DNA of 64,000 bases from Candidatus Latescibacterota bacterium (GCA_965204725.1 OZ242005.1:4128001-4192000); one strand, 5' to 3'; numbered from the stretch's first letter, positions 21,612 through 28,208 are shown. Notes: a model not told the origin generated them from the letters alone. Translations and numbers: made by a program.

Positions 21612-21836
21612 CTCTTCACCGAGTCCGGCAGGCGATACAGCGCTGTGTAGTATTCGGCACAGCGTCTTCTTTCAGCACAAGCGGGTCCTCTCTGAAAATT
21701 TGGCTTGCGAAGCGCTGGTACGCCAATTGCAAGAGTTTTGGACCGGCTGCCTCGGCGAGTTATATTTTTTCGTGCGAGGGGAAGATCGACAAATGCTGGT
21801 AAATCCAAAACCTCTAATGCGAAGGGATTTATATAA

Positions 21837-24431
21837 TTGACGACCCTGTTTGACGATCTAAAGCAATCCGCTCTCGACTGGCGCAAGGGCGGATATACTT
21901 GTGATGAACATCCACTTATAGGCGAAATCCTCGCCTACCAGATGGAGGTGCAGGAAGGTGCGCCTGTCCTCAAGTTTCTGCGCGAACCCCAGTTTCTCGC
22001 CCTTGAGGTGTACTGGTATGTCCGGCTCAAACTGAAAACTCCCCGTATCATAGCTCTTTACAAGCATTACTACGGGGGAGATAAAAAGACCTTTTTTGAT
22101 ACGCTTGGCGTTCCAATGTCAAGGGATGCTTTGGAGTGGGCAGAAATAGATGGGGTCATTGAGAAAGTCAAAAGCGATCCAGACTTTGTCGCTGAAAAGA
22201 AAATTCAGGCATTGCACGAGGCGGCGATGCTGGACTATCCGAGTTACATTCTCGCCTTGGCCATGGGTGCCGGAAAAACCGTGCTAATCGGAACGATTAT
22301 CGCCACTGAGTTTGCCATGTCCCTGCGCTATCCCAACGGCCATTTTATGAAAAACGCCCTTGTGTTTGCGCCCGGCACGACGATTATAGAATCCTTGCGC
22401 GAACTTAGCGATATGCCTTATGAAAACATTCTGCCGCCCGATCTCTATCGAGATTTTGCCGCCAATTTGAAAATTGAGTATCCGAGCAACGAAAAGGACA
22501 TACAGGCTCAGACCAGCAGTAGTTACAACCTGATCATCACCAACACCGAAAAAATCAGTCTGCGAGCGAGGCGGAGAAGCAATCAGACCGAACTGGATTT
22601 CAAGGAAAAGGAACTGCAAGCGAACTTGAGGTTGCAAAAAATCGCCAGCCTGCCGAACCTCGGCGTCTTCTCCGATGAGGCGCACCACACTTATGGCAAC
22701 ACCTTCAACAAGCTAAAGCGGGTGCGGGAAACCATCAACTACATCCACGAGCAAACTTCTATCGTAGCCGTAGTCAATACCACCGGAACGCCTTATTACA
22801 AAAAACAGTATCTGAAAGAGGTCATTGTCTGGTACGGACTTGGAGACGGTATCAAGGATAACATTCTCAAAAACCTCAACGACGGGATTCACCAATACAA
22901 CATTGGCAAGCAGTCGGAACAGAGCGTGTTCAACGACATCATCCGAGAGTTTTTCAATCAGTATGGCAATGTCTCGCTTCCCAATGGGGCAAAGGCGAAA
23001 GTTGCCTTTTACTTTAAGACACAGGATCACTTAGACGATTCGCGTCCTTGGATTGAGCAGGCCATGACGGGAATGGGCGAAAGCGTCTCTCAGATATTGG
23101 TCAATACCCAGCAATCAAGCTCGAAGGAAGTGGATGAGTTTAAGCGTCTCAACAACCCGACTAACCAGAAGCGCGTGATTCTTCTGATTGGCAAAGGCGT
23201 CGAAGGATGGAACTGTCCGAGCCTGTTTGCCTGTGCGCTCATCAAAGAGCAGACGACGAGCAACAATTATGTTTTGCAGGCGGCGACCCGGTGCCTGCGA
23301 CAAGTGCCGGGAAACGGGCACTCGGCAAAGGTATTTCTCGATTACGGCAATGTGCGGACCCTAGACAAAGAACTGAAAGACAATTTTGGTACCGACCTCG
23401 ATCTGCTTAGCGCGGCATCGGGAGATAAAGAGACCGTAACACTGCGTATTGTAAAAACGGAACTGCCCAAACTGGAAATCACTCGGACGATTAAGCGGGC
23501 TATCCGCACTGAAAAACCAAGCGACAATCTTACCTTGAACAAACCAGAGCCGCAAGAAGCTCCTGTAGTACTCCGCAGCATTCTGACGCCGGATTTCAGC
23601 GGGCCGCGGGAAATTCTAATGCCAACTGGAGACACCAAGGAACTGCCGGCCGTAGCGGAAATGACAGGTTGCCATGCTGCCGCTTGGAAAATCGCCTCGC
23701 GCTACCATCTGCCGGTGATACCAATTCTGAAGAAGCTCAACAGCTTATATCCCGAAGGTGAAATGCCGAATACTCATTTATACGGGCTGTTTCAGCAGGT
23801 TGAAGAGCAGCAGGCGAACTACGAGACTGTGGAAGAAAAAGTTACTGAGGCGATGGCCTTAATTCGGGTTCAGGATGAGAACGGAATGGATCTCTTTGAA
23901 AAGGACGAGGACGGCGTTTACGTCCACCACTTGCGTCTGCTCAGGCGAACTTATGACCGGATGAGAAACGGCGGGCTGTTTGCTGACTGCGATGAGTATG
24001 CAGACGATCACGACTTGAGCTTCCACTACATGCCGTACAACTTCGACAGTGAACCGGAGCGTTCCTTCTTCCGGCAGATTTTGTCCGTGCTCAATACAGA
24101 CTCCGGCGATGTGAGGGCGTTTCTGTTCACGGGTGGCTTGACCGATCCTAAAAAGACCGACTTTCATTTTGAATACATGGGTGAGGACAAGCGATACCAC
24201 CGCTATTTCCCCGACTTTGTCATTGTCAAGAAGACGGGCGAATTTTATATTGTCGAGGTCAAGGCTGAGAGTGAGCGCGGCGACAGGACGGTGGAAGCAA
24301 AGAGAAAGGCCGTGGAGCGGTTACAGAATATGCAGCCGGATAAATTCAAATATAACGTCGTTTATACTCAGGCTGCTGCGATAAGCGCGGAGCAAATCAA
24401 ACCAATTGCCGATTGGATAAACTCACAATAA
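21837..24431 (+). CDS. Type III restriction enzyme Res subunit (SF2 helicase + PD-(D/E)xK nuclease)
   Basis: AMGAGKT, DEAH, EGWN and QAATRCLR motifs; C-terminal YFPDFVI...VEVKA; co-oriented with a Mod gene. Confidence 0.85.
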   Translation: MTTLFDDLKQSALDWRKGGYTCDEHPLIGEILAYQMEVQEGAPVLKFLREPQFLALEVYWYVRLKLKTPRIIALYKHYYGGDKKTFFDTLGVPMSRDALEWAEIDGVIEKVKSDPDFVAEKKIQALHEAAMLDYPSYILALAMGAGKTVLIGTIIATEFAMSLRYPNGHFMKNALVFAPGTTIIESLRELSDMPYENILPPDLYRDFAANLKIEYPSNEKDIQAQTSSSYNLIITNTEKISLRARRRSNQTELDFKEKELQANLRLQKIASLPNLGVFSDEAHHTYGNTFNKLKRVRETINYIHEQTSIVAVVNTTGTPYYKKQYLKEVIVWYGLGDGIKDNILKNLNDGIHQYNIGKQSEQSVFNDIIREFFNQYGNVSLPNGAKAKVAFYFKTQDHLDDSRPWIEQAMTGMGESVSQILVNTQQSSSKEVDEFKRLNNPTNQKRVILLIGKGVEGWNCPSLFACALIKEQTTSNNYVLQAATRCLRQVPGNGHSAKVFLDYGNVRTLDKELKDNFGTDLDLLSAASGDKETVTLRIVKTELPKLEITRTIKRAIRTEKPSDNLTLNKPEPQEAPVVLRSILTPDFSGPREILMPTGDTKELPAVAEMTGCHAAAWKIASRYHLPVIPILKKLNSLYPEGEMPNTHLYGLFQQVEEQQANYETVEEKVTEAMALIRVQDENGMDLFEKDEDGVYVHHLRLLRRTYDRMRNGGLFADCDEYADDHDLSFHYMPYNFDSEPERSFFRQILSVLNTDSGDVRAFLFTGGLTDPKKTDFHFEYMGEDKRYHRYFPDFVIVKKTGEFYIVEVKAESERGDRTVEAKRKAVERLQNMQPDKFKYNVVYTQAAAISAEQIKPIADWINSQ
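24395..24427 (+). repeat. Direct repeat copy 1 (3' end of res)
   Basis: aatcaaaccaattgccgattggataaactcaca; 32/33 identical to 25521-25553. Confidence 0.9.
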
Positions 24432-24437
24432 GGAGGT

Positions 24438-24851
24438 ATGAACGTGAAAATCTATCATTTATTTATTAGCCATTCTTGGGCACATGCTGACGCATACAAC
24501 AATTTGGTCAACCTATTGGATCAAGCCAGTAGGTTCCGTTATCATAACTACTCTATCCCCAAATATGATCCAGTGCATGTTGGCACAGACAAAGAGCTGT
24601 CCAAGGCAATCCATGATCAAATGCAGCCGTGTGGCATCGTCATCGTTCTAGCGGGTGTATATGCCAGTTACAGCAAATGGATAGACAAGGAGATTAAAAT
24701 TGCTAGAAGTAGCTTTTCGAGACCAAAACCTATTCTAGCCATAGAACCTTGGGGGAGCGAGAAAACCTCTTCGGTCGTCAAGGAAAGTGCAAACCAGATC
24801 GTTGGATGGAATACCAGAAGCATCGTCTCGGCAATAAGGGAGCTAGCGTAA
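24438..24851 (+). CDS. Thoeris ThsB-like (MTH538/DUF1863) TIR-domain protein 1
   Basis: LFISHSW, VIVLAGVYASYSKWIDKEI with the putative catalytic Glu, KPILAI, VGWNT; AGGAGG RBS. Confidence 0.88.
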   Translation: MNVKIYHLFISHSWAHADAYNNLVNLLDQASRFRYHNYSIPKYDPVHVGTDKELSKAIHDQMQPCGIVIVLAGVYASYSKWIDKEIKIARSSFSRPKPILAIEPWGSEKTSSVVKESANQIVGWNTRSIVSAIRELA

Positions 24852-24919
24852 TGGACGAAAGAAGCAGTAATTCCCTAGCAGCAATAGGGCACACTCTGAC
24901 AACATAGATAGATTGAGAT

Positions 24920-25450
24920 ATGGGTGAGAGTACAACAACATCGTCTGGTGACTCCTATATCAAAGATAGGGTCGAAGATCAGATTCAGTACTTTGACCAG
25001 AAAGCGAGCAAGAACCAGAAATGGTATCGCTTCCTAAAGAAGACGGCCGTCGTCTCCAATATCCTCACGACAATGACCATCGCTGTCGCGTTTACCGTGC
25101 CTGACGACTACAAGGTTTGGATGGGGATCGGTGCTCTTGTTCTATCGACGCTCGTCCTAGCAACGTATCAATGGGAAGAATTTGCGAACTACGGAGCGAA
25201 GTGGGAGAGATTCCGTCTTGTCGCTGAGCTACTCAAGTCAGAAAAGTTCCTGTACAAGCATCAAGCAGGCCCCTACGCATCCGGCGATGAAAAGGGTCGT
25301 CACCGTTATCTTGTTGAAACCGTAGAGGCTATTATCCGTGGGACCGATATTTCCTACTTCTCTCTTATGGTTGACCCTGGGCGCAGGATTGAGCAACGAC
25401 TTGGACAAGGTAGCAATATCCGAGAAGCTGCTGAATCGACCGATGCTTAA
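24920..25450 (+). CDS. SLATT/DUF4231 two-TM membrane effector
   Basis: YIKDRVEDQIQYFDQKASKNQKWY, two TM helices, W..FR..AE.LKSEKFLY...AGPY. Confidence 0.82.
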   Translation: MGESTTTSSGDSYIKDRVEDQIQYFDQKASKNQKWYRFLKKTAVVSNILTTMTIAVAFTVPDDYKVWMGIGALVLSTLVLATYQWEEFANYGAKWERFRLVAELLKSEKFLYKHQAGPYASGDEKGRHRYLVETVEAIIRGTDISYFSLMVDPGRRIEQRLGQGSNIREAAESTDA

Positions 25451-25520
25451 CATAGCTCGGGCACCGGGGGTTTTCAGACAGCTTCTATAGAGTAATTAGG
25501 AGACAGATATTTTCCAAAAG

Positions 25521-25553
25521 AATCAAACCAATTGCTGATTGGATAAACTCACA
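25521..25553 (+). repeat. Direct repeat copy 2 (duplicate of the res 3' end, intergenic)
   Basis: aatcaaaccaattgctgattggataaactcaca, followed like copy 1 by GGAGGT and a TIR start. Confidence 0.9.
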
Positions 25554-25567
25554 GAGAGGAGGTAGCC

Positions 25568-25936
25568 ATGAACCTATTTATTAGCCATTCTTGGAACTAC
25601 TCAGGCGACTATTGGAGGTTAAAATCACTATTGGAAAACAGAGGATATTTTAATTTCAGAAACTACTCTGTGGAAAGTGATGAACCCAAAAATAATTGGG
25701 CAGAGATAGAGAACAATATTAAATGGTGTAGCACTGTTATTGTTATTGCAGGTGTGTATGCCAGTTATAGCCCATCTATAAAAAAAGAGATACGGCTAGC
25801 CAAAAGACATTTCAAGCCTACACTCGCCATAATTCCTTGGGGAAGTGGTAGAGCATCAGACTTAAGGAATGAATGTGACCGTGTTGTGGGATGGAACACC
25901 GAAAGCATTGTCTCAGCAATAAGGGAGTTGACCTAA
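25568..25936 (+). CDS. Thoeris ThsB-like TIR-domain protein 2
   Basis: LFISHSW, VIAGVYASYSPSIKKEI, KPTLAI, VGWNTESIVSAIREL; clear paralog of TIR 1. Confidence 0.85.
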   Translation: MNLFISHSWNYSGDYWRLKSLLENRGYFNFRNYSVESDEPKNNWAEIENNIKWCSTVIVIAGVYASYSPSIKKEIRLAKRHFKPTLAIIPWGSGRASDLRNECDRVVGWNTESIVSAIRELT

Positions 25937-26394
25937 TGGACAAAAATAGACAGGAACTTTTAGAAATTTATAAACTCCATGCCGAACTTGCGGACAGGGT
26001 GAGTCAAAGACGGGAAGGAGCAAACAGACTCTTTGTAAGCCTACTGACGGGCACACTAATTTTTCTCGCCGCTTTTTTGAGATACGGCACCGAGACCATG
26101 CCTGTAGGTGCAATTTTGACCGCCGTTAGTATTTTTGGAATTTTTCTTTCCGCAGCATGGTATATCGCTATCCGATCCTATCGTCAACTTAACTCAGGAA
26201 AGTTTGCTGCTTTACACGAATTAGAAGAAAAACTCGCCTATCCCTTTTTTAGGCGTGAATGGGAATTATTAGAAGAAGGCAAGAAGCGAAGTAGTTACTG
26301 GAAGCTTACCATTGTTGAAACCTTCCTTCCCATTGCCTTTTTTATCTTTCATATCGCTCTAATTATCGTCTCTGTTATTTTCTACCATCTGTAG
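25936..26394 (+). CDS. Small 3-TM membrane protein (resembles RipA-family octameric membrane proteins), putative effector
   Basis: TAATG overlap with TIR 2; YKL..E.ADRVSQRR..AN, W...I.SYRQLNSGKF...E..L...PF..EW; three hydrophobic helices. Family name recalled from memory. Confidence 0.7.
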   Translation: MDKNRQELLEIYKLHAELADRVSQRREGANRLFVSLLTGTLIFLAAFLRYGTETMPVGAILTAVSIFGIFLSAAWYIAIRSYRQLNSGKFAALHELEEKLAYPFFRREWELLEEGKKRSSYWKLTIVETFLPIAFFIFHIALIIVSVIFYHL

Positions 26395-26411
26395 ATAAGG
26401 GTAAAAATCAA

Positions 26412-28148
26412 ATGAAAACCTCGCTCAAAGTCGCCCCGCTCAAAGGTCGCCCGATGCTCCATTGGGTCGGCAAGAAACCGCTAGACGTCGTGCGGCATTT
26501 TCCAGCGCAGTTGTGTGAGACGGTGGAAGTTGACGATCCGCCGGCTGAACCATCCTACAAGGAATTTGCCAAGAGCAGTTACAACCTGCTGTTTCACGGC
26601 GATAACAAGGAGATTCTCTCTTCGCTGTTGATTGCCGGGTTCCGGGGCAAGATTGATCTGATTTATATCGACCCGCCGTTTGATTCCGCCGCGGATTACG
26701 TCCGCAAAGTCAGGTTGCGCGGGCAATCCAAAACGCTCAAAGGCGAGGGACATACTTCTATCGAGCAGACGCAATACGAGGATATTTGGGCGAATGACAA
26801 TTACTTGCAGTTCGTGTATGAACGGTTGATTCTACTGCGGGAATTACTGAGCGACAAGGGGGTTCTCTATCTGCATTGTGACTGGCACAAAAGCCATCAC
26901 CTACGGTTTTTGTTGGACGAGGTATTCGGCGTAGAGAATTTCGGAAATGAGATAATATGGAGCTACCGAAGATGGCCTTCTAAAACCAATAACTTCCAAT
27001 CTATGCACGATACCTTGCTTTGCTACTCAAAAGAATTGAAGCGTCACATTTTTAACCAAATGTATGAAGATCCTTCCGATAGCTACATACAGAGATTTGG
27101 AGGGAAAACGCAAATACTAGATGAGAAGACTGGCACTAGAAAAATAACGATGGAAGAGGATACAAAAGGTATGCCAATGCGCGACGTCTGGGATATTCCG
27201 ATAATCGCCGGATTCAAAAATGAACGAACCGACTTCCCAACCCAAAAACCCGAGGCCCTGTTAGAGCGCATCATCAAAGCCTCCAGTAATGAAGGCTCCA
27301 TCGTCCTTGACTGCTTTTGCGGCTCCGGCACCACCGCCGCTGTTGCAGAAAAGCTAGGCCGTCGCTGGATCGTGGCAGATTTGAACAAGGGCGCGATTCA
27401 GACTACCATCAAGCGGCTACAGAAAATCATCAACCAAAAAAACGGCGACTTGATAGAGAACGGCCGCGGCTTCATTCACTACCGGGTCAACAACTACGAC
27501 TTCGCCAAACAAAACGGACTCAAGAAAATTATCATCTCTAAGTACGGCATCCAAAAAGACAATGGCGACCTGTTTTTCGACGGCATAGTCGGCGGCAAGT
27601 TGGCGAAAATCATTGACCTGAACAGGCCGTTGAACCGGATGGATATCCAGATTATCAAAGATGAAATTGCCCACAATCGCCTGGACGAAACGCGGGATAT
27701 TGCCGTTTTCTGCAACGGCTCTGAAATGGACATCATTGACGAAATCGCCCAAGAGAGAAGCCCGATCAACAAAATCACGATCTGCGACATTCAGCAGGAC
27801 GGCGTGACAACAGACCAGCCCGCTGAGGCCGATGTGCAAATCGCTAAGAAAGGCAAAAAAGCGACGATAAAAATTGCCGACTACATTAGCCCTGCCATTC
27901 TGGCGAGAATGGAAATCGACAGAACGTTCTTTAACGAACAAATTGGCGACTTCCGAGCGCAGATCGACTACATTCTGATTGACACCGACTACAACGGCGA
28001 GAATTTCAACATCGTGAAAAACGATCTGCCGCAGCGGCGATCTGGTTTTATCGAAGGGGAATACGAACTGACGCTCCCCCGCGCCGGCGCAAAAGTCGCG
28101 GTCAAGATCGTAGATATGCTGGGCGAGGAAGTTATTGTGGTCGAGTAG
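26412..28148 (+). CDS. Type III R-M Mod subunit, N6-adenine DNA methyltransferase
   Basis: IYIDPPF catalytic motif, FPTQKPEALLERII, SAM-binding LDCFCGSGTT, C-terminal VKIVDMLGEE. Confidence 0.92.
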   Translation: MKTSLKVAPLKGRPMLHWVGKKPLDVVRHFPAQLCETVEVDDPPAEPSYKEFAKSSYNLLFHGDNKEILSSLLIAGFRGKIDLIYIDPPFDSAADYVRKVRLRGQSKTLKGEGHTSIEQTQYEDIWANDNYLQFVYERLILLRELLSDKGVLYLHCDWHKSHHLRFLLDEVFGVENFGNEIIWSYRRWPSKTNNFQSMHDTLLCYSKELKRHIFNQMYEDPSDSYIQRFGGKTQILDEKTGTRKITMEEDTKGMPMRDVWDIPIIAGFKNERTDFPTQKPEALLERIIKASSNEGSIVLDCFCGSGTTAAVAEKLGRRWIVADLNKGAIQTTIKRLQKIINQKNGDLIENGRGFIHYRVNNYDFAKQNGLKKIIISKYGIQKDNGDLFFDGIVGGKLAKIIDLNRPLNRMDIQIIKDEIAHNRLDETRDIAVFCNGSEMDIIDEIAQERSPINKITICDIQQDGVTTDQPAEADVQIAKKGKKATIKIADYISPAILARMEIDRTFFNEQIGDFRAQIDYILIDTDYNGENFNIVKNDLPQRRSGFIEGEYELTLPRAGAKVAVKIVDMLGEEVIVVE

Positions 28149-28208
28149 CTGTGTGAAGCGGTCCGAAAGGTCTTTAAGGTGAGAAAGTTTCTGGTAGATT
28201 GACCTCTT

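Follow-up and report, generated by a model that had tools for sequence, protein, structure and literature searches.

Two candidate Thoeris-type modules between the res and mod genes of a type III-like restriction-modification island in a sponge symbiont

The island and its genes

The subject of this report is a 6,428-bp island of low G+C content in the chromosome of a Candidatus Latescibacterota bacterium, a sponge symbiont, and in particular the four genes that the island carries between the restriction (res) and modification (mod) genes of a type III-like restriction-modification (R-M) system. The island lies in a stretch of 64,000 nucleotides (GCA_965204725.1 OZ242005.1:4128001-4192000), called the window here, and coordinates given without a prefix are counted from the first letter of that stretch. 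Its six intact open reading frames (ORFs) run on the plus strand in the order res, TIR1, SLATT/DUF4231, TIR2, 8xMP and mod. They are close together or overlapping, as an earlier model-made note on this DNA (the sequence-only reading) had described. Successive genes are 6, 68, 117, -1 and 17 nt apart; the value of -1 uses the 8xMP start codon at ATG 25936 and becomes -46 with the ATG at 25891. The features of the locus are listed below, with protein lengths in amino acids (aa).

21779..28206, no strand: low-GC island, 6,428 bp, with a DUF839-like gene on one side and recQ on the other
21837..24431, plus strand: res, superfamily 2 (SF2) helicase with C-terminal PD-(D/E)XK nuclease, 864 aa (Pfam ResIII, 1.5e-6)
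24438..24851, plus strand: TIR1, ThsB-type TIR protein, 137 aa (PF08937 ThsB_TIR, 5.3e-17; PADLOC ThsB, 1.7e-8)
24849..24868, plus strand: start of an 8xMP gene, left as a remnant immediately downstream of the TIR1 stop codon
24920..25450, plus strand: SLATT/DUF4231 membrane protein, 176 aa (DUF4231, 5.5e-17; SLATT_1, 2.1e-8; SLATT_3, 6.9e-7)
25521..25564, plus strand: repeat of the final ~35 nt of res with its ribosome-binding site, directly upstream of TIR2
25568..25936, plus strand: TIR2, divergent ThsB-type TIR protein, 122 aa (PF08937 ThsB_TIR, 9.9e-10)
25936..26394, plus strand: 8xMP/RipA-like protein with three transmembrane (TM) helices, 152 aa (PF24838 8xMP, 1.2e-35)
26412..28148, plus strand: mod, type III Mod-kind N6-adenine DNA methyltransferase, 578 aa (N6_N4_Mtase, 6.8e-51)

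The island stands out by its base composition, with a G+C content of 0.39-0.50 compared to 0.62-0.63 in the flanks. The same chromosomal site, between the DUF839-like gene and recQ, is occupied by an island in three other species of the genus. The island of the window is present, in full or in part, in 20 public sequencing runs; those with a name are sponge or marine metagenomes, and no RNA run is listed among them. In three sponge-metagenome runs of one study (X3, X4 and X5), contigs skip the island and join 21778 to 28207, and the flanks are covered there at a depth of 23-39 compared to about 5-8 for the island contigs. The empty site is the dominant allele in these runs on good but not perfect evidence, since the joint between 21778 and 28207 depends on contig overlaps of 30 nt. 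Neither a target-site duplication nor a repeat was seen at the ends of the island (21778/21779 and 28206/28207), and a scan of promoters and terminators gave counts no higher than in shuffled controls. The island is best read as a horizontally acquired, mobile, res-first, type III-like R-M module.

The res and mod genes

The R-M pair resembles the EcoP15I type of type III systems in both of its proteins. Mod is a beta-class N6-adenine methyltransferase in which the DPPF motif (at 87) precedes FCGSG (at 302); its top PADLOC model is MTase_III (2e-64), and its best match among PDB sequences is the Mod subunit of EcoP15I (4zcf, 4.3e-19). Res has the motifs GAGKT at 144, DEAH at 280, QAATRCLR at 481 and PDF...EVK at 792, which give it the SF2 helicase and C-terminal PD-(D/E)XK nuclease of the type, with a TnsA-like nuclease match at 778-831 that lies under the Pfam cut-off. 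Unlike the EcoP15I type, with its usual order of mod then res, the island has res first, and its Res matches neither the PADLOC models of restriction endonucleases, including the type III model, nor any PDB sequence. The only NCBIfam match of Res is a weak and partial one, to the BPTD_3080 family of restriction endonucleases. The search for Res homologues found 2,954, the best 120 of them at 64% identity or more. The gene is present in three of 30 other species of the genus and in nine of 168 genomes of the phylum, its own genome counted.

Cargo between res and mod in related loci

Eleven loci of this res family were gathered, with the window included, and res precedes mod in all of them. The gap between the two genes holds the following.

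L010 (122-nt gap) and the archaeal L015: empty, with res and mod adjacent
L025: 8xMP alone, no TIR gene
L012: a TIR gene (product 86% identical to TIR1) directly before 8xMP
L026: a TIR gene, then 8xMP, the entire locus decayed or pseudogenised
L011, L027 and L028: a TIR gene, then an antitoxin-like DUF2281 gene with or without a transposase-split PIN gene, or a further TIR gene, then 8xMP (Pfam)
The window: TIR1, SLATT, TIR2, 8xMP
L013 and L014 (Poribacteria): other cargo, namely a 356-aa protein without a Pfam match and a FRG-TPR protein

The gap is empty in two loci, includes 8xMP in seven and has other cargo in two. Since L010 and L015 have no gene between res and mod, the four-gene cassette of the window is an insertion, and its description in the sequence-only reading as nested inside the R-M operon holds. 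The same note had proposed a survey of the genes between homologous res and mod genes; the 11 loci show that res-then-mod is the basic unit and that TIR plus 8xMP is the commonest cargo in this phylum. The cargo can be of other kinds as well. For example, at L027 8059-9768 (genome G082) a DUF2281/PIN toxin-antitoxin pair, split by a DDE transposase, lies between the TIR gene and 8xMP, and remnants of DUF2281 are found at the matching position in L011 and L028. A matching order of res, TIR and 8xMP is also seen on a metagenomic contig (L067) on which the tail of res is only 45% identical.

A second res-first R-M family occurs in the Poribacteria, where homologues of the SLATT protein (49-58% identity) are present in 19 of 176 genomes. 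In nine of the 15 loci fetched, the SLATT gene lies between res2 (ResIII plus nuclease, 900 aa) and mod2 (an N6_N4 methylase, 730-875 aa), and in only three of these nine, all intact, do a TIR gene and a second SLATT gene follow. Because the nine loci were found via SLATT itself, its apparent constancy among them is partly circular, and res2 was also searched for directly. It is present in 72 of the 176 genomes (L169-L218), always with a gap of at least about 1 kb and variable cargo. In the 30 loci of which the first 1.5 kb after res2 were examined, the cargo is mostly a ParA/MinD-like ATPase; the rest includes membrane and CPBP/Rce1-like proteins, HicA/HicB-like genes, and SLATT with or without a TIR gene. 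Three of the 30 have mod2 after about 1 kb. A gene for a DUF4325 STAS-like protein follows the res2/mod2 loci, often with an AAA_21 ATPase gene too. The gaps of the two families together therefore show that a cargo bay, diverse in what it carries, belongs to no fewer than two res-first R-M families from two phyla of sponge symbionts.

The TIR proteins

Both TIR proteins are of the ThsB type, as the sequence-only reading had claimed: each matches PF08937, and each keeps a glutamate, Glu85 (WIDKEI in TIR1, SIKKEI in TIR2), that is invariant across an alignment of 27 TIRs adjoining 8xMP or SLATT genes. This residue aligns with a glutamate in the solved bacterial TIR 8fz9, and we take it to be catalytic. 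No hydrophobic segment was found in TIR1 or TIR2 by hydropathy. TIR2, whose gene has a G+C content of 0.39, is divergent and lacks the nearly invariant Trp81 and about six residues.

The effector of the classical Thoeris systems is missing from the locus, which was also part of the earlier description. No match to SIR2, SLOG or Macro was found in any of the six ORFs (Pfam), and no SIR2 in the window. The two SIR2_2 ORFs of the genome, at C1:1.91 Mb and 4.61 Mb, lie more than 140 kb from the nearest ThsB_TIR match. The genome has six ThsB_TIR matches in total; further ones are at L001 (G000:C1:3010215-3010508) and L006 (C1:67032-67280), one of them within an open frame of 488 aa.

The 8xMP protein and its link to TIR genes

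The last gene of the cassette encodes a small membrane protein that matches PF24838 with 122.7 bits, compared to a curated cut-off of 30. Its start is most likely the ATG at 25936, which gives a one-base overlap with the TIR2 stop codon; the alternative ATG at 25891 would extend the protein to 167 aa. The nearest ESM Atlas clusters were named automatically as '8xMP' and 'RipA family octameric membrane protein', which fits the label 'RipA-like' given in the sequence-only reading. RipA is an inner-membrane protein of Francisella. Three hydrophobic segments are seen in the hydropathy profile, and the AlphaFold2 model has four helices with a pLDDT of 92.7. A model of four copies passed, with a median ipSAE of 0.47 compared to 0.00 for the best of three controls, against a mark that was calibrated with two copies, not four, and that is reached by 20 of 30 solved pairs and one of 23 single chains. 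At least 90% of the contacts agree between the four-copy runs, the partner pLDDT is at least 72, and the modelled interface is made of the conserved cytosolic residues of the family. The protein has no sequence match in the PDB and no Foldseek match at E<=0.001. It shows no similarity to SLATT profiles (hhalign probability 0.3%) and no match to DUF2270 (PF10028) at E<=0.1, a family that none of the 168 genomes of the phylum match, the own genome counted.

The family is large, with 1,507 word-sharing homologues and 2,262 cluster representatives (50% identity) at E<=0.001, and its members are commonly found next to TIR genes. Among metagenomes, the best 80 of 534 relatives were taken, comprising 67 distinct sequences, 69 of the loci having at least 450 nt upstream. 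With a hidden Markov model (HMM) built from seven seeds, a TIR neighbour was detected in 52 of these 80 loci, directly upstream in 47 and downstream in five; Pfam ThsB_TIR confirmed 45 of the 52, that is 45 of the 80. Some of the other 28 are short of room upstream and some have DUF4062-like neighbours, identified by eye. Within the phylum, 17 of the 24 8xMP loci over the cut-off have a TIR gene within 1.5 kb. On plasmids, where 34 records match, an annotated TIR gene is directly upstream in seven of the nine loci read, and of the remaining two one has an NB-ARC protein and one nothing annotated. The plasmid pairs range over cyanobacteria, clostridia, proteobacteria, actinobacteria and haloarchaea, and a search of a phage collection returned one record, identical to a plasmid match.

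The symbiont itself holds a second example. A low-GC islet (G+C 0.45-0.52) without R-M genes, at L007 8322-10189 (G000:C1:4756321-4758188, minus strand), carries TIR (138 aa), 8xMP (165 aa), TIR_2 (148 aa) and TIR_2 (137 aa), a form that recurs in related genomes (L029, L031-L033). TIR plus 8xMP is thus a widespread, separately conserved pair, in metagenomes, in the phylum, on plasmids and in the second islet, as the sequence-only reading needed it to be.

Several of these loci have other neighbours. Near the second islet, at L007 2600-4800, genes with BMC-shell-like repeats adjoin an aldolase-type gene, as judged by eye. A caspase-family gene adjoins TIR-8xMP, with or without a further TIR, in L141 (Clostridium perfringens plasmid NZ_CP065633.1) and L188 (a Paenarthrobacter plasmid), a sign that one TIR cluster may be common to type IV-like and 8xMP effectors there. 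A type I hsdR gene is directly before TIR-8xMP in L142 (Polaromonas plasmid pH8NP2), and an unrelated ResIII plus RE_endonuc gene is directly upstream of the pair in L077. In L099, an N6_N4 methylase gene is upstream of TIR-8xMP, with a PIN gene and a serine recombinase gene after it.

The SLATT protein and its partners

The SLATT ORF also matches the NCBIfam SLATT_1 model (2.3e-24), and 214 homologues were found. Within the phylum, only three of the 168 genomes have a homologue. Pairing with a TIR gene recurs here too. In L145, a SLATT protein 66% identical to that of the window has its gene start overlapped by a different ThsB_TIR gene; in L146, the SLATT protein is 34% identical and its gene start is overlapped by the gene of a TIR1-like TIR. 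In the Poribacteria, a TIR1-like TIR is paired with a SLATT protein (TIRp-SLATTb), again with overlapping genes. A plasmid search gave one weak SLATT match, with no TIR gene adjoining. Like 8xMP, the window's SLATT protein is a small membrane protein, and the view that neither putative effector has a separate ligand-binding domain is supported.

A cassette assembled by recombination

Two direct repeats record how the cassette came together. The first, D2, joins 24801-24860 to 25886-25945 at 82% identity and extends beyond the TIR1 stop codon into TAATGGACGAAA; in alignments with the corresponding junctions of L012, L027 and L028, homology ends about 20 nt past that stop. The second, D3, spans 44 nt at 91% identity (24395-24438 and 25521-25564) and was confirmed by alignment to the 3' ends of res in L011 and L012. 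From D2 and D3 together, it follows that two res-TIR-8xMP-mod loci contributed, one the piece res-TIR1-(8xMP start) and the other the piece (res tail)-TIR2-8xMP-mod. The SLATT gene is located at the junction of the two pieces.

The cassette also varies among samples. For example, a contig of run X7 joins 24742 to 25892, which leaves one TIR gene directly before 8xMP and no SLATT gene, and contigs with loose ends at 24919 and 25507 continue into different sequence where the SLATT gene would be. From another study, a 1,679-nt contig of run X4 carries TIR1-SLATT-TIR2-8xMP with 21 differences (~98.7% identity). The four-gene cassette is a recent polymorphic mosaic, yet one that is present in more than one sample. 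Contigs with close homologues of SLATT, 8xMP and res also coincide exactly in length, a hint that the four-gene form may exist elsewhere too.

Comparison with known defence systems

The cassette is built from members of defence families that have for the most part been described by now. Yirmiya et al. (bioRxiv 10.64898/2025.12.03.692087, December 2025) list 29 putative and 11 named Thoeris types, with ThsJ as the effector of type IX. In type VII, ThsB is joined to a SLATT effector, ThsH; the system was validated against phage, and its signal is canonical cyclic ADP-ribose (cADPR). The effector of type V, ThsF, is a DUF2270 protein with three TM helices that forms a ring, and Thoeris effectors are predicted there to bind their signal in positively charged pockets between protomers. 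TIR1 and SLATT correspond in architecture to type VII: a ThsB-type TIR with the conserved glutamate adjoins, on the same strand and 68 nt away, the gene of a small SLATT membrane protein, and there is no SIR2-SLOG or Macro effector. Unlike type VII, the window has its SLATT gene after TIR1 only secondarily, with the 8xMP-start remnant between them, and the pair sits inside an R-M operon. Types I and II do not apply, as no ThsA (SIR2-SLOG or Macro-TM) gene is beside the TIR genes. TIR2 and 8xMP recall type V in being a TIR and a three-TM protein that is modelled as a homo-oligomer; in contrast to type V as described there, the effector is PF24838 and not DUF2270 (PF10028). The sequence-only reading had offered the lack of ThsA as a sign of a non-canonical system, and this main argument for novelty is removed because TIR plus SLATT without ThsA is already described, under the name of type VII Thoeris (10.64898/2025.12.03.692087). 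A literature search of limited coverage returned no account of Thoeris-type genes embedded in a type III R-M operon, and no relevant paper on an octameric membrane protein of the 8xMP, PF24838 or DUF4231 kind, on a RipA octamer or on a link between RipA and Thoeris.

How the cassette may work

In our judgement, the cargo bay of this mobile, res-first, type III-like R-M island probably holds two autonomous Thoeris-type abortive-infection modules, brought together by recombination. TIR1 and SLATT would form one module, with the type VII architecture, and TIR2 and 8xMP a second. By analogy with the validated Thoeris types V and VII, phage infection would activate the TIR protein, which would turn NAD+ into a signal of the cADPR type. 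The signal would bind at cytosolic interfaces between the protomers of the oligomeric membrane protein, and this protein would then breach the membrane and abort the infection. The same analogy is the source of the enzymatic activity, signal, pore formation and phage defence predicted for these modules. Restriction would act first, and the TIR modules would add autonomous second layers of defence, co-transferred and probably co-transcribed with the R-M genes. The four-gene form probably arose by recombination between res-TIR-8xMP-mod loci together with the capture of a SLATT gene.

Several observations weigh against this view of the cassette. The adjacency of TIR1 and SLATT is secondary because the 68-nt spacer contains the 8xMP-start remnant. 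TIR2 may be impaired, since it has lost Trp81 and has a short deletion. L025 retains 8xMP between res and mod without a TIR gene, the related locus L026 is pseudogenised throughout, and the res2-mod2 gap, a frequent place in the Poribacteria for the clade to which the window's SLATT protein belongs, gives no match to the TIR HMM in six of the nine intact SLATT loci there. Also, the homology of the window's SLATT protein to the tested ThsH effectors is presumed from the shared SLATT annotation. The pairing of TIR1 with SLATT and of TIR2 with the three-TM protein, as the sequence-only reading drew it, is reasonable; it is not the sole option, as a TIR1-type gene stands directly before 8xMP in L012 and the SLATT gene sits where two recombined pieces meet.

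The position of the cassette raises the question of coupling. A precedent for nesting of this kind is PrrC, an anticodon nuclease that the R-M enzyme of EcoprrI restrains: there too an abortive-infection gene lies between R-M genes, which are of type I in EcoprrI and type III-like in the island. By the same principle, the modules of the island could be a guard, as the sequence-only reading had suggested, that fires when a phage inhibits or evades Res or Mod, and their place between res and mod would then be required. The arrangement is suggestive. 8xMP lies between res and mod in seven of the 11 loci, in two families of the phylum; the order res-TIR-8xMP is found with three unrelated res genes (the window, L067 and L077); SLATT, with or without a TIR gene, lies between another res/mod pair in the Poribacteria; some loci have 8xMP or SLATT without a TIR gene between res and mod; and the spacing in the island is tight, with 6 nt to res and 17 nt to mod. 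However, this res or mod is present in none of the 25 metagenomic 8xMP loci that have at least 2 kb upstream and 1.5 kb downstream, the TIR-8xMP islet of the same genome has no R-M genes, and the plasmid pairs mostly lack R-M neighbours. The bay also carries unrelated cargo (DUF2281/PIN, an insertion sequence, FRG-TPR, HicA and ParA-like genes), and the related loci are non-independent samples. A guard of the type III enzyme is hence an unlikely role for the modules, and the claim of the sequence-only reading is not borne out by pairs that mostly occur without R-M genes.

The membrane proteins might also take their signal from the methyltransferase and not from the TIR proteins, by sensing methylated mononucleotides released when phage degrade Mod-methylated DNA. 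The model for this is type II Metis. Osterman et al. (bioRxiv 10.1101/2025.11.05.686725, November 2025) describe MisC as a three-TM protein with a predicted octameric ring that is triggered by m6dAMP, a nucleotide that depends on DNA adenine methylation, and they predict forms of Metis that carry their own methylase. 8xMP likewise has three TM helices and passed the four-copy modelling, L025 has the order res-8xMP-mod, and SLATT is found by mod2 without a TIR gene in six of the nine intact Poribacteria loci. Against this, the partner of MisC is a HAD phosphatase whereas that of 8xMP is a TIR protein, and no HAD phosphatase of the MisB kind was found among the six ORFs (Pfam) or seen in the window or in the nine plasmid loci read. 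MisC has no annotated domain according to the preprint. 8xMP is linked to a TIR gene in most of the loci without a nearby methylase, and the Poribacteria loci were selected by SLATT and are partly circular, with res2 in 72 of 176 genomes versus SLATT in 19. A Metis-like mechanism is therefore highly improbable here.

It could also be that the cassette is the scar of a recombination hot spot and that one or both modules, TIR2 or SLATT especially, no longer function. The truncated-gene footprints fit such debris, as do the remnants and pseudogenes in sister loci (L026, L027, L028, L178, L181 and L183), the lost tryptophan of TIR2 and the absence of the island from most members of the sampled population. 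The six ORFs are intact, however, both TIR proteins keep the glutamate, and the four-gene stretch recurs at ~98.7% identity in the samples of another study, which makes decay a very unlikely account. A broader form of coupling, in which the bay itself is functional, with SLATT and 8xMP wired to R-M through methylated nucleotides derived from Mod or with the TIR proteins firing on blocked restriction, appears quite unlikely.

What the island would mean

If the bay is so wired to restriction, the island would unite R-M and abortive infection in a single two-layer unit, common to two sponge-symbiont phyla. If the two modules are autonomous, as we favour, PF24838 would be a major family of TIR-linked membrane effectors in bacteria and archaea. 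The family would then extend the list of Thoeris effectors or give a sequence identity to a type left unnamed by Yirmiya et al. Res-first type III-like operons would be seen to contain a cargo bay where genes for defence and for toxin-antitoxin systems replace one another. Such a bay would be the type III counterpart of some type I loci and a place to seek new defence genes. Also, the forms at one chromosomal site, from the empty site through res-mod, res-8xMP-mod and res-TIR-8xMP-mod to res-TIR-SLATT-TIR-8xMP-mod, would make a natural series that suits testing whether nested modules are independent of the R-M system that carries them or coupled to it.

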